Origin: Desulfobaccales bacterium
Lineage (GTDB): Bacteria; Desulfobacterota; Desulfobaccia; Desulfobaccales; 0-14-0-80-60-11
DNA: 54,645 bases
Assembly: GCA_044451265.1 (NCBI GenBank)
Contig: JBIOJX010000002.1
Location: 1-54,645, forward strand
Direction of reading: 5' to 3'
Below, piece by piece: positions 3,129 through 15,965 of the stretch. Below the pieces are notes generated by a model. That model was not told the origin of the DNA. It saw only the letters and a program-made list of their open reading frames with translations, and ran no database searches. The position numbers were made by a program, and so were the translations under genes. Positions within the stretch are counted from its first letter, which is position 1, and every line of letters begins with the position of its first letter.

Positions 3129-5807
3129 ATGAAAAGAATTAGTGCTTTGATACTGGGTTTGTTGCTGAGCGCGGTTTTCACTTTGCCGGCTGGGGCCGGG
3201 ACCCTGACAGGCAACAAATTTTTTTATAAGCCAAGTCTGGGAGCCCGCGGCGACACCGAGAAAAAGACCTTTGATGCCGGCCTGGATCGAATCGACGCCC
3301 GCCTGGGCAAAGAAATTTGGGTGGGAGATCCGAACTATGGCACTACCCTACAGGATGCCATTACCGCCATCGGGAGTTCCCCGGCCATCCTACGCATTCC
3401 GGTCGGCTCCTGGGCCGTGGCCAAGGGCACGGTCATCCCCTCTAATGTTACCCTGAAGTTTGAAAACGGCGGCGTGCTTGATGTTTCCGGCCTCCTGGAC
3501 GCCCCTATTGAGGCCATGACCTCGGAGACGGCCTGCAAGGTCACCGTGACCAATCACGGTTTGCAGACCGGGAATTACGTCATTTTCTACAACATCCAGC
3601 AATGCTACGTTTCCGACAACACCCATAGTGCCACCCATGCCAACGAGTGGAGTAACAACAATGAGTACCTTTATCAGGTTACGGTAGTTGACGCCAATAA
3701 CTTCACGGTCCCGATTAACTCTAGCACTTATCACGCCTACAACGCCTCCACCGATCCGGGCAGAGTCTGCACGCCGTTGCAAATTCTTGGGCATATTGAC
3801 GCCGGGAAACGAAAAATCTTTAATATCAAGGCCCCCTGTCAAGTCAAGTTTACTAATAATTATAGTTCCTATAATGTCAATGACCACAAATCACAGATGG
3901 ATGTTTACCCGGAATGGTTTGGGGCGGTAGGCGACGGCCGCACCACTGACGACCTGCTGGCCCTCGACGCCAGTTTTCACGCCCTGAAGTATTACGACCT
4001 GGCGGTGGGGACCATCCATCTGTCTAACTTTTACGGAGTATCGAACACCTGGAGCCTGAACGAGATCGCCAAATCATCCATAGGAAATTTATACGTCATC
4101 GGCAATGGCCGCAACAACTGCGGCCTCGTGGGATTGGTGCCCTCAGCCGGGACCGGCTGCGACGGCAAGCCGGTGATCGAGGCCATCGCCGCGGCTAATT
4201 TGCGCTTTAAGGGATTTGGCATCTACGGCACTTCCAAGCATACCTGGGAAACGCAACCTCCCGGTGCTCCGAGTGTCGGTTTGCTGCTGGGGGCGTCGCA
4301 GACCTCAATAAATGGGGCTGACAGCATTTTTGACGACATGTATTTCTACGGCTGGTTTAAATATGGCTGGGTAATGAACCGGGGCCATGCGCAATCTACC
4401 TTTAACAATCAAGAAGGTGAAGTCTATGCCTGGTACGATGGAGTCACCCCCACCTACGCCTTTAATTACTTCTTCGGAGCCGGAGACCGCCCCCTGATCT
4501 GGCCCGCCCTGGTGCCTACCAACGACGCCTGGAATACCTGGGCACCCAACCGTGATGTCAAAGATACGGTGTGTAATATTATTAAGACGGTTACTCATGG
4601 AACCATGGCACCGGGAAATGCCTGCATCTATCAGGATAAGGCTGGCCCACAGTTGTCAGGCATCCTTTGTGGTGCTGTCCATGATTATTTTGTTTATTGC
4701 TGCAATGGTCTTGTGGATATTGTTGAAAGTGGCGGCGATGGTCACGGGGCGATTGCTGGTGTTTATGTCTGTAGTGATAGTGGAGGTTCAGGCTATCCTC
4801 TCTGCACTTCTAAAGTAAGGATAGATACCGTTGGCAATACCGTTGCTAATGGTATCTTTTTAATGACCGATGCCTATACTACATTGATCAACTCGAAGGT
4901 CTCTTATATCTTTGGGAATAACGGCTATAAAATTCAACTTGGAGCAGGTATTAGTTATAGCAGGTTTGAAAACCTCTGGAGCAACCTAACCTCATTCACC
5001 GTAGCCGGAGAAGTGCGGGGAAGCTACATCGAAGTCCCGGAGAGTTGCGCAAACTTTAACATCGTTACAGGTGCCGACTCCGGCACTATTGTTGTGCGCC
5101 AAGGGCCTTATTACTATGGCGGCAGACAAACTACCATTGCCGGTAACTTGCACTTGGGGATGCCTGATGTCACTACCGTACCCACCTTGACCCTGACGCC
5201 TTATAAGATGACCTGGGCGGCAGCCGCGCCCACCACGGGAAGTTGGCCTCAAGGTTCGGTAATCTGGAAAATCGGGGCGGCGGCGGGCAGTTCGCCCGGA
5301 TGGTTCTGCAACCTGGACAACAGCTGCGGGACACTGAACAGCGGGGCCACCACCGGCAGTATCACCACCGGCACGAAACTATTAACCGTAACCTCTGTCA
5401 CTGGTTTGAAGATTGGCGACTTCATCGATGTCGTCGCCGATGCCGGGGGAAATGCGGTGAGCAAGGGGCGGGTGGTAAACATTGACGCCACGGGCATGGT
5501 AGTGACCCTGGCGGCTAACGCCACAGCCACCGCCACTGCCAAGGCGGTCAGTTATCATAATGAGACCACGGCGGCCGCCTTTAGTCCGATGCCCCCCACC
5601 GGGGCCCGCAACTCCGGGGTCACCGGGACCATTGCCACCGGCACGGCCGTCACTCACGGCCTGGGTGTTGCTCCGACTAAGGTCTTGCTGACCTCGGTTG
5701 ATGGTGTGCCCACCGGGATTTACCCCGGTACCTTTGGCACGTCCACCTTTGTGATCAATTTTGCCGGCGGCGGCTCCCATGCCTTCTATTGGGAAGCCAT
5801 CCAATAA
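3129..5807 (+). CDS. Secreted right-handed beta-helix protein (pectate-lyase-superfamily / tailspike-like), putative polysaccharide depolymerase
   Basis: There is a signal peptide, MKRISALILGLLLSAVFTLPAGAG. The motif YPEWFGAVGDGRTTDDLLALDASF resembles the Pectate_lyase_3 N-terminal motif. The middle is long and Gly/Asn/Thr-rich. The C-terminal GSWPQGSVIWKIGAAAGSSPGWFC motif resembles tail-fibre C-termini. A purine-rich SD (gggggcgaggag) precedes the ATG. Confidence 0.6.
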   Translation: MKRISALILGLLLSAVFTLPAGAGTLTGNKFFYKPSLGARGDTEKKTFDAGLDRIDARLGKEIWVGDPNYGTTLQDAITAIGSSPAILRIPVGSWAVAKGTVIPSNVTLKFENGGVLDVSGLLDAPIEAMTSETACKVTVTNHGLQTGNYVIFYNIQQCYVSDNTHSATHANEWSNNNEYLYQVTVVDANNFTVPINSSTYHAYNASTDPGRVCTPLQILGHIDAGKRKIFNIKAPCQVKFTNNYSSYNVNDHKSQMDVYPEWFGAVGDGRTTDDLLALDASFHALKYYDLAVGTIHLSNFYGVSNTWSLNEIAKSSIGNLYVIGNGRNNCGLVGLVPSAGTGCDGKPVIEAIAAANLRFKGFGIYGTSKHTWETQPPGAPSVGLLLGASQTSINGADSIFDDMYFYGWFKYGWVMNRGHAQSTFNNQEGEVYAWYDGVTPTYAFNYFFGAGDRPLIWPALVPTNDAWNTWAPNRDVKDTVCNIIKTVTHGTMAPGNACIYQDKAGPQLSGILCGAVHDYFVYCCNGLVDIVESGGDGHGAIAGVYVCSDSGGSGYPLCTSKVRIDTVGNTVANGIFLMTDAYTTLINSKVSYIFGNNGYKIQLGAGISYSRFENLWSNLTSFTVAGEVRGSYIEVPESCANFNIVTGADSGTIVVRQGPYYYGGRQTTIAGNLHLGMPDVTTVPTLTLTPYKMTWAAAAPTTGSWPQGSVIWKIGAAAGSSPGWFCNLDNSCGTLNSGATTGSITTGTKLLTVTSVTGLKIGDFIDVVADAGGNAVSKGRVVNIDATGMVVTLAANATATATAKAVSYHNETTAAAFSPMPPTGARNSGVTGTIATGTAVTHGLGVAPTKVLLTSVDGVPTGIYPGTFGTSTFVINFAGGGSHAFYWEAIQ

Positions 5808-6375: not shown

Positions 6376-6663
6376 ATGGCAACCGTATCTTTGACAGCAA
6401 AAATTTCTATCCCGAAGCATGTCCTGGTCCGGGTTTTTCAAAACGAATCGGTTCTCCTCAATTTGGACAGTGAATTTTATCATGGCCTGGATGACGTGGG
6501 AACCCACATGTGGCAGGCGGTCACCCAGTCCAAGACCATCCAGGATGCCTACGACTTGCTGCAGTCGGAGTTCGAAGTCGACCCCGCAACTTTGAAAAAA
6601 GATCTGAACGATTTCATCGAAAGGCTGGTGCAGCGTGGGCTGGTGGAGATCCACGAGCGCTAA
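6376..6663 (+). CDS. Lasso peptide biosynthesis B1 protein (PqqD-family RiPP recognition element)
   Basis: The sequence LLNLDSEFYHGLDDVGTHMWQAV...TIQDAYDLLQSEFEVDPATLKKDLNDFIERLVQRGLVEI matches the PqqD/RRE pattern. The ATG at 6376 is preceded by AAGGAAG. The ORF-track start at 6274 adds an unlikely extension. Confidence 0.85.
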   Translation: MATVSLTAKISIPKHVLVRVFQNESVLLNLDSEFYHGLDDVGTHMWQAVTQSKTIQDAYDLLQSEFEVDPATLKKDLNDFIERLVQRGLVEIHER

Positions 6664-7135
6664 CTGGCACAAGTTTTGGAGGCTGGCCCGGCCGGAGAAG
6701 ACTTTGCTGGCCCAAGCTTTCCTGACTCTGCCGCTGATCGCCGTGGGGCTGCTCTGGCCGGGCTTTCGACGCCTGCACGCCTGCTTGGTCAGGTGGCAGC
6801 GCCCAGCTGGCCATCCGGGACCTGAGCCGGGGGCCGGACCATGGCCGCAAGCCTGCGTCACGGCCCGCCTGGTGCGGATCGCGGCGCGCTACAGCCTGAT
6901 TCGCCTCAACTGCCTGCCCAAGTCCCTGGCCCTCTGGTGGTTGCTGCACCGCCAGGGGATCGGCTCTGACCTGCGCATCGGGGTCACTCCCAAGGAAGGT
7001 CGCCTCGAAGCGCATGCCTGGGTGGAATTTCAGGGCGTTCCGCTGAACGATCAGGACGACGTGCACGAACGCTTTGCACCTTTTCATGAAACCATAACGC
7101 CACCGGAAGCGCTGGGCCGCCTGCGCGGCCTCTAG
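6635..7135 (+). CDS. Lasso peptide biosynthesis B2 protein (transglutaminase-like Cys protease, leader peptidase)
   Basis: CLPKSLALWWLLHRQGIGSDLRIGV...LEAHAWVEFQGVPLNDQDD carries the Cys...His...Asp signature of McjB-type B2 proteins. The GTG start overlaps the end of B1 by 29 nt. Confidence 0.85.
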   Translation: MGWWRSTSANWHKFWRLARPEKTLLAQAFLTLPLIAVGLLWPGFRRLHACLVRWQRPAGHPGPEPGAGPWPQACVTARLVRIAARYSLIRLNCLPKSLALWWLLHRQGIGSDLRIGVTPKEGRLEAHAWVEFQGVPLNDQDDVHERFAPFHETITPPEALGRLRGL

Positions 7136-7181: not shown

Positions 7182-8723
7182 ATGGAAATGCGGAAAGAAG
7201 CAGCCCCCCCTTTAGCCCCGGATAGCGGTATTTTCCTGATGGAAAATCATGACGAGGCTTATCGGGTCTGGCGTGAAGCGGGGGTACACGAAAAAATTCT
7301 GGTGCATATCGATGCCCACGATGATCTGGTCTGGAATCCAGATCAGGGCTCCATTAATATTGCCAACTTCATCTGTCCCGCCTTGAAGGAGGGCATGATC
7401 AGGGAAGTCTTTTGGGTGGTCCCTGATCGGACCTGGGAGGATGCCGCCAGCCGCAAGTCTTTGGTACGGCGTTTGCATAAATTATTGGCAAAATACCCCG
7501 GCAAGCCGCATCCCCTCAAAGTGGAAAGAGACCTGATTGCCGGGGCAATTTTGGGGAGGCCCCTGCGGGTGTGCACGTTGCAGAGCCTGCCCCTGATAAG
7601 CGAAAAAGTCCTACTCGATATCGACGTGGATTATCTGGTGATTCCCAAGGCCTGCCACTCCAGCGACCAATATCAGGGACTTCCCTGGTGCTGGCCCGAC
7701 GCCTTAGCGGCCGGGCTCAAGGCCAGGGGTATCCAGGCTGAACTGGTGACCATCGCCTATTCGGTGGAGGGCGGCTACACCCCCTTGCAGTGGAAATACC
7801 TGGGCGATGAAATGGCCCGGCGCCTGGATGGGGTTCAAGATCACGAGCCGTTTCTGCGCGGGATGGCCCTGCTGCGGGAGGGAGCCCAAGCCGAGGCTGG
7901 GGGGAATCTGACCCAGGCGGCGCAAACCTATCTTCAGGCCAGGGAGTTTCTCCCGGACAACCCTGCCCTCGACTTCCGCCTGGCAAACGCTTACGCCGAT
8001 ATGGGGAGACCAACCGACGCCCAGGAGTGCCACCGGCGGGCTCGCGAACTGGACCCCGCTTACGGTACCGCTTATGGCAGCGGCGGGATCTGGTATTACT
8101 GGGACCGGCGCTACCCCGAGGCCGAACAGGAGCACCGGCGCACCCTAATTTTGAATCCGGCAGACGCTTACGCCCATTTCGGCCTGGGACAACTGGCGGT
8201 CCGCCGCAAGCGCTGGCAAGAGGCGGAGGTCTGGCTGGGCCAGTCCTTGGAACTTGACGACCATCTGGTGGATGCCTGGCGCACGTTGGGAAAGGTTCTG
8301 GCGAAGCGAGGTCGCGGTCCGGAGGCCATTGAGGCCTACGAAAGATCGCTGCACTTGAGCCTACGGGGCTATCTGCCCATAGGGGCTCCCATCTTTTCCC
8401 ACAATGACCGCGGCCTGCTCCTGGACCCCGATCATTTCCAGGTGCATACGATTTTGGGTAGCCTTTATGCTTTACAGGGAAAGATTGATGCTGCTATAAT
8501 TTCGCTGCGTATGGGTATAGCGGCTGGCGACAATGGCTGTATGGTCCGAGTCTCCCTGGCCCGGCTTTACTTGAAAAAACGGCAGTGGAACGAGGTTGGA
8601 CCGGAACTCTGGGCCGGCATCAAAGTGATCCCTCGGGATATCGGAAACGCACTCCAGCGAGCCTGGTATCACCTTCGTCGAGCTTTTAAAGCAAAATACC
8701 GGGTGCTAAAGGGCGCAGGATGA
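7182..8723 (+). CDS. UPF0489-domain (arginase/deacetylase-fold) protein fused to C-terminal TPR repeats
   Basis: The N-terminal motifs ENHDEAY, LVHIDAHDDL, LLDIDVDYL and LVTIAYS match the UPF0489 pattern, which resembles the DAHxD and DxD metal motifs of ureohydrolases. The C-terminal half has repeated A-x-Y-x-x-A/L-E-L-D/N-P TPR-like units. The stop overlaps the cyclase start (ATGA). Confidence 0.65.
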   Translation: MEMRKEAAPPLAPDSGIFLMENHDEAYRVWREAGVHEKILVHIDAHDDLVWNPDQGSINIANFICPALKEGMIREVFWVVPDRTWEDAASRKSLVRRLHKLLAKYPGKPHPLKVERDLIAGAILGRPLRVCTLQSLPLISEKVLLDIDVDYLVIPKACHSSDQYQGLPWCWPDALAAGLKARGIQAELVTIAYSVEGGYTPLQWKYLGDEMARRLDGVQDHEPFLRGMALLREGAQAEAGGNLTQAAQTYLQAREFLPDNPALDFRLANAYADMGRPTDAQECHRRARELDPAYGTAYGSGGIWYYWDRRYPEAEQEHRRTLILNPADAYAHFGLGQLAVRRKRWQEAEVWLGQSLELDDHLVDAWRTLGKVLAKRGRGPEAIEAYERSLHLSLRGYLPIGAPIFSHNDRGLLLDPDHFQVHTILGSLYALQGKIDAAIISLRMGIAAGDNGCMVRVSLARLYLKKRQWNEVGPELWAGIKVIPRDIGNALQRAWYHLRRAFKAKYRVLKGAG

Positions 8724-10615
8724 GTGGCATCGTGGGCTTCATCAATCAGGCCGGACAGCCCGTAGAACGGGAGTTGCTGGGGCGCCTGACCACATCCCTC
8801 GCTTTCCGCGGCCCCGATGACCACGGCGTCTGGACTGAAGGCCACGTGGGCCTGGGCCACACCATGCTCCGCACCACCTTGGAGTCCGAGCGCGAGCAGC
8901 AGCCCTGCAGCCTGGACGGCAAGGTGTGGATCACCGCGGATGCCCGCATCGACGGCCGGGCCGACCTCATCCGTGAGCTGGAAGGCCGGGGCTGCACGAA
9001 CCTGAAGAATGTTCCCGATGTCGAACTTATCCTCCATGCCTACCAAGTTTGGGGGGACGATTGCGTCCAGCACCTCATCGGCGACTTCGCCTTTGCCATC
9101 TGGGACGGACCCCGGCGCCGGCTGTGGTGCGCTCGGGACCACCTGGGCGTCAAGCCCTTCTTTTATGCCGACGCGGGCCGGAGCCTGGTGTTCAGCAATA
9201 CCCTGAACTGTATCCGGCGGCATCCGGACATCTCCGACCGGCTCAACGACCTGGCCATCGCCGATTTCCTCCTTTTTGACAACAACCAGGACCCGGCTAC
9301 CACCACCTTTGCCGACATCCAGCGCCTCCCTGCCGCGCACTCCCTGACCTGGCAGCCAGGCGGCGCCGTTAAGGTGCGGCGCTACTGGAGCCTGCCTCAA
9401 GAAGGCGTCGTGCACTACCCGCGCCAGCGTGATTATGTGGAGCGTTTCCAGGAGTTGCTGCGCCAGGCCGTGGCCGACCGCTTGCGCACCGACAAGGTCG
9501 GCGTCCTCCTGAGCGGCGGGCTGGACTCTCCCATGGTAACGGCCATCGCCCGGGACCTCCTGGCCGCCCGCTCTCCGCGCTTTGACCTGCAGTGCTATAC
9601 CATGGTATTCGACCACTTGATTCCGGATGAAGAACGTTATTATGCCGGGGAGGTGGCCAGGCATCTGCATGTCCCGGTCGAGTTTCTGCCGCAGGATGAC
9701 TATGCTTTTTACGGAGGCCAAACAACCATGCGCCGGCCGGAGCCGCGCCACGACCCCCGGGGAGAGGCCAGGACCGAATTGGTAAATCTGGTCGCCAGCC
9801 GGAACCGCTTGGTGTTGACCGGCGAGGGTGGCGACGAGATTCTGTACCCCTCCAAGGCTTATATCTACCGATTGGCCAAGAGGCTGCGTTTGGCCCCTCT
9901 AGCTGCGGGAGTGGGGCGGTGCCTCTTTTTTTACGGCCATGTGCCCCAGGTCGGTTTCAAGACGGCCCTGGGGCGGTGGCGCCAGGGCCGCAGCCGACCC
10001 GGAGAAGGATTCCCGGCGTGGCTCAACCCGGGCTTTGCGGCCCGGCTGGAGCTGCCGACCCGGTGGGAGCGTTTCAATAAAGGGTCTTGGTCAGAGCACC
10101 CGGTGCGCCCCGAGGCCTGTGCCTTCCTCCGCAACCCTCTTATCCAGATGGTTTTTGAGGATTATGACCCAGGGACTTCGGGGGCGCCGGTAGAATTTCG
10201 TCATCCTCTGCTGGACGTGCGCCTGCTCAGTTATGCCCTGAGCCTGCCGCCGCTCCCCTGGTGCGTGGATAAGATCATGCTGCGGGAACTGGGCAAAGGG
10301 CGCTTGCCGGAGGTGGTCCGCCGCCGTCCCAAGGCGCCTTTGGCTGAGTATCCCGAACTGGCTATGCTTCGTCGGCCCGGTTCCCGGTGGCTGGATGACT
10401 TTGCGCCCTGCGAGCAGTTGGGCGCCTATGTCCGGCGCGCCGCGGTGCCCCCGGTGAGCGCCGAGACCGACCAGGAGCGGTTGTGGATGAACCTGCGTCC
10501 TCTCAGTCTCAATTACTGGCTGCACAATCTAAAGGCAGATTTTCCTGATATATTGTCGATAAACCCGAGTTTAACCATGTATGAAGCAACTGCAACTACA
10601 GGGGAAAGATCATGA
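8720..10615 (+). CDS. Lasso peptide isopeptide-bond-forming cyclase (asparagine synthetase-like, C protein)
   Basis: The N-terminal MSGIVGF Ntn-amidotransferase-like start and the SGGLDS PP-loop motif are present. The gene sits in an operon between B1/B2 and the precursor gene. Confidence 0.85.
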   Translation: MSGIVGFINQAGQPVERELLGRLTTSLAFRGPDDHGVWTEGHVGLGHTMLRTTLESEREQQPCSLDGKVWITADARIDGRADLIRELEGRGCTNLKNVPDVELILHAYQVWGDDCVQHLIGDFAFAIWDGPRRRLWCARDHLGVKPFFYADAGRSLVFSNTLNCIRRHPDISDRLNDLAIADFLLFDNNQDPATTTFADIQRLPAAHSLTWQPGGAVKVRRYWSLPQEGVVHYPRQRDYVERFQELLRQAVADRLRTDKVGVLLSGGLDSPMVTAIARDLLAARSPRFDLQCYTMVFDHLIPDEERYYAGEVARHLHVPVEFLPQDDYAFYGGQTTMRRPEPRHDPRGEARTELVNLVASRNRLVLTGEGGDEILYPSKAYIYRLAKRLRLAPLAAGVGRCLFFYGHVPQVGFKTALGRWRQGRSRPGEGFPAWLNPGFAARLELPTRWERFNKGSWSEHPVRPEACAFLRNPLIQMVFEDYDPGTSGAPVEFRHPLLDVRLLSYALSLPPLPWCVDKIMLRELGKGRLPEVVRRRPKAPLAEYPELAMLRRPGSRWLDDFAPCEQLGAYVRRAAVPPVSAETDQERLWMNLRPLSLNYWLHNLKADFPDILSINPSLTMYEATATTGERS

Positions 10616-10749
10616 AACCGACCAAAAAAGAACGGCAGGCTTATCACACTCCTCAGGTGATGGATTACGGCAATGTCAAACAAATCACTATGGCCATTGC
10701 GGGTAGCGGGAGCCAGGACTCTCCGGCAAGAGCCAAAACTCATGCGTAG
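10612..10749 (+). CDS. Lasso peptide precursor (45 aa): MKPTKKERQAYHTPQVMDYGNVKQITMAIAGSGSQDSPARAKTHA
   Basis: The gene is absent from the ORF track because it is shorter than 60 aa. Its ATG overlaps the cyclase stop (ATGA). The leader matches the lasso motif YxxPxLxxxGxxxxxTx, using Y11, P14, V16, G20 and T26. The predicted core is AIAGSGSQDSPARAKTHA, with an acidic acceptor at core position 9. Confidence 0.8.
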   Translation: MKPTKKERQAYHTPQVMDYGNVKQITMAIAGSGSQDSPARAKTHA

Positions 10750-10779: not shown

Positions 10780-11805
10780 ATGGGTGAGTCGTGGTTTTAT
10801 GAGGCTTTCGGCTTGCGGCTCAAGTCCGACCGGGCCATTCCCGGTCTGGTGGCCCAGCCGGAGCCGGCGGCGGTTGATTTGGAGGTATGCCAGGAAGGCC
10901 TGGCGGGATGGTGGAGCCGACTTCTGGAGATGCCGCAAGAATTGTGGCATTTCGGCTTTACGGACGAAAACCGCGGCGAACCCGGCTACAGAATGTGGCT
11001 GGTGGCCGGGGGGGAATACTACCGGCTGCGATACCGAGACGGCTGCCAATTCGTCATGAACCGGGCGTGTACGCGGCTTTGGGTCTCGGGCCCCGAGGGT
11101 GCGACCCCGGAATATCTCGCCACCTACCTGTTGGGCCCGGTTTTGGGGATTCTCCTGCGTTTGCGGGGTACGCCCTGTCTGCACGGCAGCGCCGTGGCCG
11201 TGGGAGCGCAAGCCCTGGGCCTTCTTGGCCCACCGGGCGCCGGGAAATCCACCACCGCCGCGGCCTTTGCCTGTCTCGGCTATCCGGTGCTCACCGATGA
11301 TATCATCGCCCTCAAAGAAGAAGGCGGTGAGTACCTGGCCTTCCCGGGCAATCCGAGACTTTGCTTGTGGCCGCGGTCGGTTGGACTGCTGTTCAACTCC
11401 CCGGAAGCCTTGCCACTCCTGATTCCCGAGAACTCATTAGAACCAGATTGGGATAAACGTTGTCTGGACCTCACCGCGCCGGGTTACCATTATCAATCCC
11501 AGCCGCTGCCTTTGAAAGCGCTATATTTTCTAGGGGAGCGCCGCGGCGATGGCAATCCGCCGGTAACGGCGGTGACCGGCCAGAAGGCCTTGCTAAACCT
11601 AATGGCCAACGCTTATGGCAGCAACATCCTGGACCCTCCCCGGCGGGCGCAAGAATTTGAGGTTCTGGGGCGTTTGCTTACCAAAATCCGCTTGCGCCGA
11701 GTCACGCCGTGCCCCGGGGCTGACCATCTCCGCAGTCTCTGCGAAACGATCCTCTCGGACTTTCACTCCCTGACCGCGGAAATTCCTGCACGGGAGGATG
11801 CCTAA
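10780..11805 (+). CDS. HPr-kinase-related kinase (lasso-cluster kinase type)
   Basis: LHGSAVAVGAQALGLLGPPGAGKSTTAAAFACLGYPVLTDD carries a P-loop in the context typical of the HprK C-terminal domain. The N-terminal YEAFGLRLKSD pattern is seen in HprK-related kinases of RiPP loci. Confidence 0.75.
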   Translation: MGESWFYEAFGLRLKSDRAIPGLVAQPEPAAVDLEVCQEGLAGWWSRLLEMPQELWHFGFTDENRGEPGYRMWLVAGGEYYRLRYRDGCQFVMNRACTRLWVSGPEGATPEYLATYLLGPVLGILLRLRGTPCLHGSAVAVGAQALGLLGPPGAGKSTTAAAFACLGYPVLTDDIIALKEEGGEYLAFPGNPRLCLWPRSVGLLFNSPEALPLLIPENSLEPDWDKRCLDLTAPGYHYQSQPLPLKALYFLGERRGDGNPPVTAVTGQKALLNLMANAYGSNILDPPRRAQEFEVLGRLLTKIRLRRVTPCPGADHLRSLCETILSDFHSLTAEIPAREDA

Positions 11806-11816
11806 TAGGTGTACAC

Positions 11817-13019
11817 ATGCCTTTCTCTTATACTTTCAGCGGTTTTGGCAAAATAATTTTCGATGATGCTTACCGCCTGGGATACCAGCAGGCCATCCGA
11901 CAGGTCGTCATGCCTGGCGACGTGGTGCTGGATCTCGGCTGCGGCAGCGGCCTCTTAGGGCTCCTGGCCTGTAAATGCGGCGCCCGCCGGGTCTACGCCA
12001 TCGAAGTGAGTGACATCATCCATCTGGCCGAGAACTTGGCTGTCGCTAATGGTTACGCCGACCGCATCGAGTACATTAAGGCCCTGTCAACCCAGGTAAG
12101 CCTGCCGGAACGGGTTGACGTCATGATCTCTGACCTGCGCGGCGTGCTGCCTTTCTTTGGAAGACACATCCCGGCGGTCGTGGATGCCCGCAAGCGTTTT
12201 CTGGCTCCGGGAGGCCGTATGCTCCCTCAGCGGGACCTGGTGTGGGCGGCGTTATTGGAATCGCCTAAAGCTTATAATGCCTTAAGTTCACCCTGGGATG
12301 GCCATGGTTATGGGTTAGACTTGAGAGCAGCCCGTGATTTGGCGGTCAACAATTGTTATGTGGTCCGCCCCAAAGCGGGAGGGTTGCTGGCGGCACCAAG
12401 AACTTTGACGGTCCTGGATTATGATGCGGTGGAAAGCCCGGATGTACAGGGCAAATTAAGCTGGGAAGTATCGCGGGCGGGAGTCGGCCATGGATTGGTC
12501 CTGTGGTTCGATTCCATCCTGGCACCGGGGGTGGAGATTGCCAATGCCCCCGGTTCTTTTGAAGAACCGAACAGGCTGATCTATGGAAACTTTTTATGTC
12601 CCTGGCCGGAACCCGTGAACTTGGCAGCGGGGGATGTGGTATCGGTAGACCTGGCCGCCAACCTGGTGGGAGATGAATATATCTGGCGCTGGGACACCCG
12701 CATCCTGGACCAGGGCCAACCGGGGCGTCTAAAGGGTGACTTTCGACAATCCACCCTTTTGAGTGCCATCGTATCCCCAGCCAAATTGCGACGCATTGCC
12801 CACAGCCACGTGCCCGATCTGAGCCGGGACGGCCAGATCGACCGGCTCATCCTGGGGTTGATGGACGGCAACAACTCCCTGGGGGAGATTGCCCGGCAGG
12901 TGGCGGCGGAGTTCCCGGCCCGCTTTTCCGGTGAGGGCGAGGCCCTGGCCCGGGTGGGGAAGTTGTCCCTGGAGTACGGCCGTCCCCTGGATAATAAATA
13001 TTTATTAAAAGATATCTAA
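11817..13019 (+). CDS. PRMT-like class I SAM-dependent methyltransferase with a C-terminal PqqD/RRE-like domain
   Basis: Motif I is VVLDLGCGSGLLGLLACKCGARRVYAIE. VDVMISDLRG sits at the position of the PRMT double-E loop, and GHGLVLWFDS resembles the PRMT beta-barrel. The C-terminus RLILGLMDGNNSLGEIARQVAAEFPARF...ALARVGKLSLEYG resembles a winged-helix RRE. Confidence 0.6.
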   Translation: MPFSYTFSGFGKIIFDDAYRLGYQQAIRQVVMPGDVVLDLGCGSGLLGLLACKCGARRVYAIEVSDIIHLAENLAVANGYADRIEYIKALSTQVSLPERVDVMISDLRGVLPFFGRHIPAVVDARKRFLAPGGRMLPQRDLVWAALLESPKAYNALSSPWDGHGYGLDLRAARDLAVNNCYVVRPKAGGLLAAPRTLTVLDYDAVESPDVQGKLSWEVSRAGVGHGLVLWFDSILAPGVEIANAPGSFEEPNRLIYGNFLCPWPEPVNLAAGDVVSVDLAANLVGDEYIWRWDTRILDQGQPGRLKGDFRQSTLLSAIVSPAKLRRIAHSHVPDLSRDGQIDRLILGLMDGNNSLGEIARQVAAEFPARFSGEGEALARVGKLSLEYGRPLDNKYLLKDI

Positions 13020-13143: not shown

Positions 13144-14301
13144 TTACTCCGGGTTCCAGCTTGGGGCTGAGGAGAACAGCGTCCGGAGGGCTTGGCGGAG
13201 GAAGCGGGCTCGGTCAGGCTCCCCGTAGACCGCCAGCAGATACTCGGGCTGGGGCCAGAGCAAGGCTGAGACGTAAAAGACCCAATCGTGCAGGCGGCGA
13301 TGGCGGTATAGGGCCGCGAAATGCGGCGTGAAATACCCGAGAGAGTGGTTTAAAACCAGCCTTTCGGCCCAGGATGGGCGATACCCGGATAGATCGTGCA
13401 GGATTGCTCCAGGGATTAGGTGGGGAAACACTGGCGCCAGCTCCCGGAGAATAAGATAAACCGGCGCCTGACATTGGAACCGAATTAATTCCTCCTGCAG
13501 GGTGGGCCAGTGCAGGGGCAGCGTGCGCAGGGTCCGGCCCAGGTCGACGATCTGCATGGCCCCGTGAAACTCCTCAAAGGTGTGCAGGGCTGAGTGAATC
13601 AAGGCATGTTCCGGACAGAGAACTTTAACCGGTTGACCCTGATAATTCCAGGGGAGGGCCATTTCCTCCAGTCGGTGGAAGGGGAGCGTATAAAAATTAT
13701 CCACCCCGCTGAGGTGCCAATGGAGATCCACCAGTAAAAGACCACCTGGGGGCGGGTTGAAGTGTAATTCATTTCGAAAAAGTTCCCGAAATCCCGGGCG
13801 GGGATCCGTGCATTGAGACTGGAGCGTGAGGCCCAATTCCTCCAGAATCGATTTAACTCGGGAGACGTGTCCGGGAGAGATGAGCAGGTCCAGGTCGGCC
13901 ATGGGCCTGACGGCTGATTCCCCGTACAACCGTATCCGAAGATCCGCGCCCTTGAGGAGGATACTCCCGATCCCGGCCTGGTTGAGAGCCTGAAGCACGC
14001 GTAATACTTCTTGATCTTCCCGGGCGGTGGCCCTCAGGGCCACGATATAATCCTGGCGCAAATGTTCCAATAATGAGTGCTGCAGATGTTTTTCCAGGCC
14101 CTGGCGCATCACCTCCCGGTAGAGCAATGGGGTTAGCCGGTGATGGTGCAGTTGTTCCAGGGTTGGGAGGTCTAAACTGGCGAGAATAACTTCTCCATGG
14201 GGCACGTTATGGAGTTTATCTGCCAGCAGCAGGGGCCAAAAGCCTTGGATGAGGGTAATTGCCTCTTGCCAATCATAAAATTGCTTTTTCCTGAGCATCA
14301 A
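13144..14301 (-). CDS. Nucleotidyltransferase-family protein (NTP_transf_5 / PF14907-like)
   Basis: LLKGADLRIRLYGESAVRPMADLDLLISP is the family signature. This family recurs in kinase-associated lasso and other RiPP loci. The gene is convergent with the operon. Confidence 0.7.
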   Translation of the reverse strand: MMLRKKQFYDWQEAITLIQGFWPLLLADKLHNVPHGEVILASLDLPTLEQLHHHRLTPLLYREVMRQGLEKHLQHSLLEHLRQDYIVALRATAREDQEVLRVLQALNQAGIGSILLKGADLRIRLYGESAVRPMADLDLLISPGHVSRVKSILEELGLTLQSQCTDPRPGFRELFRNELHFNPPPGGLLLVDLHWHLSGVDNFYTLPFHRLEEMALPWNYQGQPVKVLCPEHALIHSALHTFEEFHGAMQIVDLGRTLRTLPLHWPTLQEELIRFQCQAPVYLILRELAPVFPHLIPGAILHDLSGYRPSWAERLVLNHSLGYFTPHFAALYRHRRLHDWVFYVSALLWPQPEYLLAVYGEPDRARFLRQALRTLFSSAPSWNPE

Positions 14302-14876: not shown

Positions 14877-15965
14877 ATGAATACATTATTTTTCAGAATA
14901 AAGAGACATTCTTTATTAAGGCTACCTGGGTTATGGACCATAATTTTCGTGTTGATCTTGGTGGGCGCTTGTGCCGGGCCTTCCCGGCAACCTGCTCCAG
15001 ACCAAATGGTTTCCCAGGTTCAAGCCGAGGCTCGCAAAAATAAGCTTCAAGATCAGCTCCTGACCCAGATAGGGCGCGTCACCTTGATGAGTTACCATGA
15101 CTATAAAGTAGGGCCCGAAGATTTACTGGAAATATCTTTTTTTGGGCAGGATGACCTGAGCGGGGAGGTTCGGGTCAATGGCCAGGGAAAAATCAGCATG
15201 TCTTTGGTGGGAGAAGTGCCAGTGGCTGGCCTGTCTCCCCGAGAAATTGAGGACAGATTGTCTAATTTGTACAAGGAAGGCCAATTTTTCACCAACCCTC
15301 AGATCAAGGTCCTGGTTAAGGAGTATCGGCACCAGCGGGTGGTGGTTTCCGGGGCCGTATCCAAACCGGGCGCTTATGAAATGATCGGCCCGCGTACCCT
15401 CTTGGAGGTCATCGGTCAGGCCGGGGGCCTGAGCGAGAATGCCACTGACGTAATTCACGTGATTCGCTCCCAGGATGCCTCCGAGCGTACCGCGGCTTTG
15501 AAGGTGGCTGCTAAGGGACCTGCTGCGGCCGGAGCGCAGACCATCGTCATCGACCTGCGCCGTCTGCTGATGGATGGCGCCATGGAATTGAACCTCCCCA
15601 TAAAAAATGGCGACGTAGTTTTTGTGCCTTTTGCCCAAAATGCTTACATCCTGGGAGCGGTTAGAAAGCCCGGAAACGTGCCGGTCAAAGACAAGTTGAC
15701 CGTAGCGCAAGCCATTGCCATGGCCGGCGGGCTTGACCTTAACCTGGCCTCGAACAATGTAACCGTGGTGCGCTTTGATGATAAGGGGCAGCGCATTGAC
15801 CTCAAATATAATCTGAAAAACGTCATACAGGCGGGGGGGGCCGAGGTTCTGGTAAAACAGAATGATATCATTTTTGTGGAGGAGAGCGGCATTAGAAGAG
15901 CCTTATATGATTTCAAGAACTTGTCCCCCCTTGGCCAATTTTCTGTCCCCTTAGCAACTTTTTAA
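14877..15965 (+). CDS. wza: Outer-membrane polysaccharide export protein (Wza/OPX family, Poly_export + SLBB domains)
   Basis: YKVGPEDLLEISFFGQDDLSGEVRVNGQGKISMSLVGEVPVAGLSPREIEDRL is the Poly_export signature. An N-terminal lipoprotein-like signal (LVGAC) and repeated SLBB-like segments are present. Confidence 0.85.
   Translation: MNTLFFRIKRHSLLRLPGLWTIIFVLILVGACAGPSRQPAPDQMVSQVQAEARKNKLQDQLLTQIGRVTLMSYHDYKVGPEDLLEISFFGQDDLSGEVRVNGQGKISMSLVGEVPVAGLSPREIEDRLSNLYKEGQFFTNPQIKVLVKEYRHQRVVVSGAVSKPGAYEMIGPRTLLEVIGQAGGLSENATDVIHVIRSQDASERTAALKVAAKGPAAAGAQTIVIDLRRLLMDGAMELNLPIKNGDVVFVPFAQNAYILGAVRKPGNVPVKDKLTVAQAIAMAGGLDLNLASNNVTVVRFDDKGQRIDLKYNLKNVIQAGGAEVLVKQNDIIFVEESGIRRALYDFKNLSPLGQFSVPLATF

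Follow-up and report, generated by a model that had tools for sequence, protein, structure and literature searches.

The 54,645-nt stretch of Desulfobaccales bacterium DNA analysed here (GenBank assembly GCA_044451265.1, contig JBIOJX010000002.1, positions 1 to 54,645 of the forward strand; hereafter the window) carries a compact lasso-peptide operon on the plus strand. One of them, located between the genes of the B2 leader peptidase and the lasso cyclase, encodes a 513-aa protein, here called ArgTPR, in which a peptide-arginase domain of the PF12640 type is fused to a tetratricopeptide repeat (TPR) solenoid. ArgTPR is likely to be a Mn-dependent PF12640 peptide arginase of the OspR/PbsE kind, which tailors the lasso peptide of this operon by converting the core arginine Arg13 to ornithine. 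Conversion of Arg to Orn, one of the reactions considered in a preliminary description of this DNA, would be the activity expected from homology and context, and the hypothesis survived every computational test available.

Judged by sequence and structural model, the N-terminal ~215 residues of ArgTPR belong, as a divergent member, to the peptide-arginase family PF12640/UPF0489. Pfam gives a weak match to this family, scoring 19.7 bits with the full-length protein and 23.4 bits with the isolated N-domain (gathering score 27), and the peptide arginase model NF052474 of NCBIfam, which represents the FlmR/OhkR family, was matched with 53.8 bits (E 1.9e-14) compared to a cut-off of 350. The best PDB sequence match of the single protein was OspR (8BRP), which aligned in four collinear blocks (E 2e-10), and a profile of 29 N-domains of the clade retrieved 8BRP as the sole match from the whole PDB (E 3.2e-17). 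Individual PF12640 matches were obtained for 23 of these 29 N-domains, and the relatives from loci L052 (27.7) and L040 (29.4) passed the gathering score. The hidden Markov model (HMM) of conventional arginases and agmatinases, PF00491, did not match the window protein and gave weak matches in two of the 29 relatives (E 0.003). Among the conventional-arginase motifs GGDHS, DAHxD and SxDxDxxDP, the window protein matches DAHDD only. As sequence, fold and active site agree, the N-domain is regarded as a true peptide-arginase relative despite the sub-threshold Pfam score. The relation to UPF0489 and ureohydrolases proposed in the preliminary description was borne out by the HMM, the PDB sequence search and the fold search. 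Its view of UPF0489 as a family of unknown function is outdated, since the family includes OspR, and activity has been demonstrated for no fewer than nine peptide arginases (PMC12703449, PMC10028609).

Alignment to 8BRP and structure prediction revealed the following layout of the protein:

7182..8723, plus strand: ArgTPR, 513-aa fusion of a PF12640-type peptide-arginase domain and a TPR solenoid; ATG start
7230..7829, plus strand: ureohydrolase-fold catalytic domain, residues ~17-216 (AlphaFold2 model, Foldseek, clade profile against the PDB)
7242..7259, plus strand: motif 1, ENHDEA, residues 21-26; family consensus EEH(N/H)EAF (alignment to 8BRP)
7305..7325, plus strand: motif 2, HIDAHDD (DxHxD), residues 42-48 (alignment to 8BRP)
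7617..7634, plus strand: motif 3, DIDVDY, residues 146-151; LDIDLDYFSC in the family (alignment to 8BRP)
7761..7784, plus strand: conserved SVEGGYTP loop (alignment to 8BRP)
7836..8714, plus strand: TPR solenoid of ~14 helices, residues ~219-511 (Pfam TPR_1/2/11/16/19; helices of the model)

The three motifs quoted in the preliminary description are present at these residues, and motif 1 extends to ENHDEAY in the window protein. His12, Asp39, His41, Asp43, Asp165 and Asp167 of OspR correspond to His23, Asp44, His46, Asp48, Asp148 and Asp150, so that all six His/Asp metal ligands are retained. They are conserved across the clade: counted over 85 homologs with 32-88% identity, H23 was found in 80/81, D44 and H46 in 83/83 each, D48 in 82/83, and D148 and D150 in 85/85 sequences each. 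Ser194, which aligns with OspR Ser264, occurs in all 85 homologs. Glu196 is conserved in 30 of 35 lasso-linked homologs and, from its place in the alignment, is a candidate guanidinium-binding acid at the position of Glu277 in arginase-1. The position of OspR Glu11 is occupied by Asn22, with Asn in 29/33 lasso-linked and Asp in 30/48 distant homologs; Asp24 or Glu196 may substitute for the missing glutamate. The roles of the OspR residues have been assigned previously, and a triple mutant of OspR at Asp39, His41 and Asp43 was inactive (PMC10028609). A counterpart of the OspR dimerisation domain (Ser170-Ser234; ~179-243 of the 8BRP chain) is absent from ArgTPR, in which motif 3 and the last conserved block lie only ~20 residues apart.

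Structure prediction and a Foldseek comparison, both suggested in the preliminary description, yielded a ureohydrolase fold with OspR in first place. The AlphaFold2 model of residues 1-235 (predicted local distance difference test, pLDDT, 91.6; predicted template modelling score, pTM, 0.89) displays the three-layer alpha/beta/alpha arrangement of ureohydrolases. Chains of OspR 8BRP ranked first (E 1.4e-7), ahead of agmatinases, plant arginases, formiminoglutamase, proclavaminate amidinohydrolase, guanidinases and metformin hydrolase; OspR and the other top matches had a probability of 1.00 and template modelling scores of 0.45-0.55. Ureohydrolases made up all of the top 50, and no HDAC-type deacetylase was among them. 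A reading as deacetylase or deacylase was rejected on these grounds and because the full binuclear ligand set is present in place of the single Zn site of HDAC-type enzymes. Of the hydrolytic modifications considered in the preliminary description, Arg to Orn is supported, whereas deacylation and deimination found no support in a fold comparison that returned ureohydrolases only among its top 50.

Pfam TPR families match residues ~229-450 with E-values down to 3e-18. In the full-length AlphaFold2 model, both parts form a single confident body (pLDDT 91.9, pTM 0.89). The solenoid probably serves as a docking module for the leader, for B1 or for the peptide. TPR domains are typical protein-protein adaptors, and one might imagine that ArgTPR is a non-catalytic scaffold or chaperone, in which the TPR and a degenerate arginase domain bind an Arg-rich peptide or assemble B1, B2 and the cyclase. 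The low scores against the curated arginase models would fit such a role, as would the presence of an arginase-like protein from T. brucei among the fold matches, which we take to be an example of an arginase fold without the usual metal centre. In contrast, six metal ligands that are near-invariant over 85 sequences down to 32% identity are unexpected for a domain that merely binds, and we regard a pure scaffold as quite improbable.

The operon around ArgTPR is composed as follows:

6376..6663, plus strand: B1, PqqD-family recognition element for peptides made by ribosomes and modified after translation (RiPPs), a leader-binding chaperone (Pfam PqqD, E 3e-16; NCBIfam lasso_PqqD_Bac, E 2e-12)
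6635..7135, plus strand: B2, transglutaminase-like leader peptidase (Pfam Transglut_core3, E 2e-21; NF033537 lasso_biosyn_B2, 85.4 bits, cut-off 33)
8720..10615, plus strand: lasso cyclase, Asn-synthetase-like (NF033535, 360 bits, E 2e-107; Pfam Asn_synthase and GATase_7)
10612..10749, plus strand: precursor peptide of 45 aa, with a 27-aa leader and the 18-aa core AIAGSGSQDSPARAKTHA (weak lasso_cyano match, 23.9 bits)
10729..10731, plus strand: AGA codon of core Arg13, the predicted substrate residue (direct reading of the sequence)
10780..11805, plus strand: HprK-related P-loop kinase of the lasso peptide kinase type (TIGR04352, E 5e-7)
11817..13019, plus strand: methyltransferase with the fold of protein arginine methyltransferases (PRMTs) (PDB CARM1, E 5e-26; also PRMT1/2/6/7/8)
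13144..14301, minus strand: NTP_transf_5 nucleotidyltransferase (Pfam PF14907, E 2e-42), a gene that often accompanies clusters of this lasso type

It contains the components by which a lasso cluster is recognized, namely a B1 recognition element, a B2 peptidase, an Asn-synthetase-like cyclase and a precursor with Thr at -2 and Asp or Glu at core positions 7-9. The precursor reads MKPTKKERQAYHTPQVMDYGNVKQITM|AIAGSGSQDSPARAKTHA (leader|core). Thr occupies position -2 and Asp core position 9, and, as had been pointed out before, core position 13 holds the only Arg of the core; the ring is predicted to link Ala1 and Asp9. The nearest relatives, L006 and L155, share the same leader and Asp9, and a leader pattern YxxP...T(-2) is common to 50 related precursors.

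The position of ArgTPR between B2 and the cyclase is as originally described, and so is the ATGA overlap, in which the TGA stop codon of ArgTPR (8721-8723) overlaps the ATG of the cyclase (8720-8722). A second overlap of this kind joins the cyclase to the precursor gene at 10612-10615. The pathway role first argued from the ATGA overlap gains further support from the place that the gene keeps in ~30 lasso clusters and from Arg-rich cores. An ArgTPR unrelated to the lasso pathway, and belonging to a polysaccharide locus or to general metabolism instead, might be suspected from the large exopolysaccharide (EPS) locus downstream in the window and because TPR proteins are common in PEP-CTERM/EPS systems, as exemplified by a weak PrsT match. 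However, the gene is embedded in the B1-B2-C operon, and its stop codon overlaps the next start codon; this placement is conserved across phyla, and the distant clade is again associated with PqqD genes. These findings already disfavour the explanation strongly, and we attach hardly any probability to it.

The substrate hypothesis was tested by a comparison of core peptides. A scan of metagenome contigs with the cluster methyltransferase had turned up, unexpectedly, many lasso clusters of the same family (B1-B2-C-A-kinase-methyltransferase) without ArgTPR, and these served as controls. Precursors were located by the shared leader pattern and their cleavage sites were predicted. Arginine made up 11.9% of the core residues (60/506) in the presence of ArgTPR compared to 2.6% (11/422) in its absence (Mann-Whitney p 5e-6). 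All 28 cores from ArgTPR clusters have an Arg, compared to 11 of 22 from clusters without the gene (Fisher p 1.9e-5). The content of core Lys did not differ (6.3% with and 7.3% without ArgTPR), nor did that of leader Arg (6.2% and 6.5%, respectively; p 0.82). In view of these equal values, a composition artefact, for instance of GC-rich genomes, was rejected. Neighbour-joining analysis of the cyclases intermingled the two kinds of cluster, with at least six sister contrasts; for example, the window, L006 and L007 lie beside L087, L088, L091 and L124. The link to Arg is therefore not one inherited accident, and its inheritance within a single clade is weakened as an explanation. Among biphenomycin-type clusters, those with precursors lacking Arg likewise lack the arginase gene (PMC12257519).

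The cores displayed some additional features. By the usual Thr(-2) rule, those of the ArgTPR clusters L010, L014 and L023 would start with Arg and have Asp7 (RGRTGGD, RAGTRAD and RGMSGLD, respectively); Arg as residue 1 would be unusual for a lasso ring. A large subgroup of the predicted cores of this kinase/methyltransferase lasso family shares Cys-Leu as a conserved C-terminal motif (GCL, PCL, ACL, TCL, SCL or KCL; loci L130, L137, L138, L141, L142, L144-L146, L154, L055, L073, L132, L133, L157, L162 and L163). In many cores, a basic residue precedes a Thr located two to four positions before the C-terminus (KTHA, KTAA, KTGG, RTA, NRT). This basic-Thr site may be a phosphorylation site for the HprK-like kinase, which is present in nearly all clusters of this family; the lasso phosphorylation sites known so far are a C-terminal Ser or Ser3 (PMC10368454).

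Relatives of ArgTPR in a large protein collection were metagenomic only. A scan of one genome per GTDB species produced 80 homolog loci, whose six-frame open reading frames (ORFs) were searched with the cluster proteins of the window. The closer relatives (44-88% identity) occupy ~31 loci from Terriglobia and other Acidobacteriota, metagenome-assembled genomes (MAGs) named 'uncultured delta proteobacterium', Nitrospira, Binatia and one Melainabacteria MAG; the nearest 'uncultured delta proteobacterium' locus is L006 (79%). Wherever the flanking sequence suffices, they reside in lasso clusters with cyclase, B2 and PqqD, usually in the order B1-B2-Arg-C or B1-Arg-B2-C. A homolog of the HprK-like kinase was found in all but four of the lasso-linked loci, and the PRMT-fold methyltransferase in ~13 of the ~31. 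Fourteen of 34 copies directly adjoin PqqD and ~10 more are separated from it by B2 alone.

The more distant homologs (32-41% identity) are spread over ~49 loci from Omnitrophota, Elusimicrobia, Planctomycetes and Nitrospirae. Their fused architecture of ~520 aa is the same, and PqqD genes (one or two) and several radical-SAM/SPASM genes lie on their flanks; neither a cyclase nor B2 was found in these loci. HprK-like and NTP_transf_5 genes are present in some of them. Taken together, these neighbourhoods mark the ArgTPR family as a tailoring enzyme of RiPPs that is linked to PqqD-type recognition proteins; lasso clusters are one of at least two settings in which it occurs. The distant cassettes (L039-L085) are arranged as PqqD-ArgTPR-PqqD followed by radical-SAM/SPASM genes, three of them in both L052 (5792..16073) and L047 (9616..17868). 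None of their radical-SAM proteins reached any curated NCBIfam cut-off, and the cassettes look like an undescribed RiPP-like system. In L052, NTP_transf_5 is fused to GNAT and signal-peptidase-like domains. A putative triple fusion was detected in L033 (6275..8215) and L040 (8483..11455), where UPF0489, TPR and PqqD share one stop-free frame. Upstream in this frame, L040 also encodes a B12-binding radical-SAM domain, which recalls the pairing of B12-radical-SAM proteins and TPR-arginases in biphenomycin clusters.

The fusion of arginase and TPR, which had been noted from the window alone, is the rule in this clade, since a single ORF of 450 aa or longer was seen for 76 of the 80 GTDB homologs. 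In a search of representative clusters (50% identity), more than 130 of the top 150 were 480-550 aa long and matched over both domains. The profile used for this search retained the TPR columns, so that the global count of 364,395 at E<=1e-3 is inflated by TPR proteins and the top list alone was used. In the long-read assemblies from ENA L002 (8001..9568), L003 (8001..9384) and L004 (8678..10179), the gene calls treat the arginase and TPR parts, and in L004 also the cyclase, as overlapping genes of their own. Given the single ORFs in 76/80 GTDB homologs, a true split was rejected in favour of long-read frameshifts; because the splits are probably errors of this type, gene calls in these assemblies under-report the fusion. 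The fusion itself is not new, as it is known from the characterized proteins PbsE and BipC (PMC12257519, PMC12707348).

Based on these data, the following mechanism can be proposed. His23, Asp44, His46, Asp48, Asp148 and Asp150 would hold a binuclear metal centre, and a metal-activated water would attack the guanidinium carbon of the peptidyl Arg, with release of urea and ornithine left in the peptide. The predicted target is Arg13 of AIAGSGSQDSPARAKTHA, and the expected mass change is -42.02 Da on a lasso peptide of 1705.85 Da. The TPR solenoid would pack rigidly on the catalytic domain in place of the dimerisation insert of OspR and probably docks the precursor, either directly or via the neighbouring PqqD-type B1. 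As the TPR probably docks the precursor, the most likely substrate is the linear peptide with its leader still attached, modified before cyclisation or at about that time. OspR, too, acts on a leader-bearing RiPP precursor (PMC10028609).

Several points speak against an assignment as Arg13-directed arginase. The window protein remains below the curated cut-offs of both family models, Pfam and NF052474. Glu11 of OspR, the proposed guanidinium holder, is replaced by Asn22, and the dimerisation domain that forms the substrate cleft in OspR is absent; therefore, substrate binding must differ from that of OspR. The co-variation of ArgTPR and core Arg was calculated from pattern-predicted precursors and cleavage sites, its positive set was drawn from GTDB but its negative set from metagenomes, and arginase genes elsewhere in the genome are possible. 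An ornithine product of this clade, like any ornithine lasso peptide, is so far a prediction. Moreover, Arg13 is among the few bulky tail residues able to plug the nine-residue ring, and ornithine could weaken the lasso. Cores of this lasso family are almost free of aromatic residues, which is why Arg may be a steric plug and its shortening could affect threading. One may speculate that phosphorylation or a nucleotidyltransferase modification near the conserved (K/R)-T by the C-terminus compensates for this.

The altered pocket could also mean that ArgTPR is an active ureohydrolase-fold hydrolase with a reaction other than plain Arg to Orn on the precursor. The substrate might be a pre-modified Arg, either methylated or beside a phosphorylated residue, or another amidine- or guanidine-type group, or an acyl group might be removed. 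Asn or Asp at the position of OspR Glu11, the missing dimerisation insert and the kinase and PRMT-fold methyltransferase encoded in the same cluster are compatible with such a reaction, and PbsE accepts a pre-modified substrate only (PMC12257519). However, the structural neighbours are without exception enzymes that cleave a guanidino or amidino C-N bond, with no deacetylase among them, and the presence of ArgTPR tracks specifically with core Arg. The methyltransferase is encoded in a minority of the ArgTPR clusters and is common in clusters without ArgTPR, so that methyl-Arg cannot be the general substrate. We consider a different reaction unlikely and prefer the simple conversion of Arg to Orn.

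ArgTPR shares with the known PF12640 peptide arginases the location in a RiPP cluster with an Arg-containing core. Its closest known counterparts include PbsE from Peribacillus simplex and BipC from Streptomyces griseorubiginosus and P. simplex, the TPR-containing UPF0489 peptide arginases of biphenomycin biosynthesis, which were compared with it by their published descriptions rather than by sequence identity or domain boundaries. All three combine an N-terminal PF12640 domain with H/D/H/D/D/D ligands, TPR repeats and a RiPP cluster. The ligands of PbsE are His10, Asp31, His33, Asp35, Asp165 and Asp167, and conversion of Arg to Orn in the presence of Mn2+ was shown in vitro for both PbsE and BipC (PMC12257519, PMC12707348). 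The spacing from His to the first Asp is 21 residues in PbsE as well as in ArgTPR (H23-D44), whereas motifs 2 and 3 are separated by 130 residues in PbsE and 100 in ArgTPR. BipC keeps EEHxE where ArgTPR has ENHDE. In contrast to ArgTPR, PbsE and BipC work with MNIO and B12-radical-SAM partners on an FRF motif in Bacillota and Actinomycetota and not in lasso clusters.

OspR of the landornamide pathway is the sole significant PDB relative and the top fold match of ArgTPR, with the three motifs and six Mn ligands in common. It is a 305-aa homodimer without TPR, carries Glu11 instead of Asn22, uses a 65-residue dimerisation domain to form the peptide cleft and acts on a precursor of the proteusin/NHLP rather than the lasso type. 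The FlmR/OhkR family (NF052474), for which Arg to Orn was shown (PMC12703449), is the best NCBIfam match of ArgTPR, but only the first half of the model aligns (profile positions 4-163), the precursors are of the DD(I/V)LF type and TPR is lacking. KgrD of the enteropeptin pathway (PF00491) performs a Mn-dependent conversion of Arg to Orn in a RiPP pathway, in which a methyltransferase acts afterwards (PMC12703449); it belongs to the conventional arginase family and needs a thiomorpholine-modified substrate. For lasso peptides, a single enzymatic alteration of an arginine side chain has been reported, the deimination of citrulassin (PMC9266682). The peptidyl arginine deiminase in question differs from ArgTPR in fold and chemistry (Arg to citrulline, +0.98 Da), its gene lies far away from the cluster, and it has no sequence relation to ArgTPR. 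The precursor types listed for PF12640 arginases are NHLP, Nif11, SCIFF, SCCRRSCN, DD(I/V)LF, MGXRRSSE and FHAFRF, and citrullination, but no ornithine, appears in a review of lasso tailoring from 2022 (PMC9266682). A literature search, which did not cover the 2020 Angewandte survey of peptide arginases, returned no link of lasso peptides to arginase, ornithine, UPF0489 or TPR.

Both the enzyme chemistry and the fusion of arginase and TPR are already known, and it is the lasso context that looks new. To our knowledge, ornithine has been found in landornamide, selidamides, enteropeptins and biphenomycins, but not in lasso peptides. The data describe a divergent, TPR-fused clade of peptide arginases, which lacks the dimerisation insert and was recruited into lasso clusters of uncultured bacteria, and they predict ornithine lasso peptides. 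The clade is large and derives almost wholly from uncultured soil and groundwater phyla: the lasso branch from uncultured Acidobacteriota, Desulfobacterota-like bacteria, Nitrospira and Binatia, the radical-SAM/SPASM branch from Omnitrophota, Elusimicrobia and Planctomycetes. A broader proposal, to which we lend slightly more doubt than belief, is that of a distinct, probably monomeric and TPR-guided arginase lineage, portable together with PqqD proteins, that gives rise to the first ornithine lasso peptides and also operates in radical-SAM/SPASM cassettes. If true, the lasso family would gain a new tailoring reaction from an arginase encoded within the cluster, ornithine would place a reactive primary amine useful for derivatisation on a threaded scaffold, and a compact TPR-guided arginase, unlike the dimeric OspR, would be available for peptide engineering.

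The methyltransferase of the cluster (11817..13019) is a clear homolog of eukaryotic PRMTs. Its double-E loop is altered (SDL...FFGRH), and by eye its last ~85 residues resemble a winged-helix or RiPP recognition element domain. It occurs independently of ArgTPR, as many complete B1-B2-C-A-kinase clusters have the methyltransferase without the arginase, and it is an optional tailoring gene. Because half of the cores in its ArgTPR-less clusters have no Arg, its substrate is probably not arginine. Action on ArgTPR-made ornithine as a general rule was rejected in view of the same clusters.

Outside the operon, an 892-aa protein with a signal-peptide-like N-terminus and without a Pfam match is encoded just upstream (3129..5807, plus strand). 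Downstream of the lasso cluster, an EPS locus on the same strand spans 14877..~52600. It encodes a Wzc-like tyrosine kinase, a flippase, glycosyltransferases, a sugar transferase, a UDP-GlcNAc 2-epimerase and ManC. The gene at 14877..15965 probably is a Wza-type polysaccharide export gene, based on the export-protein Pfam matches of the syntenic gene in L004. The GC content swings from 0.41 to 0.66. Polysaccharide genes also adjoin the related lasso loci L002, L004 and L005.

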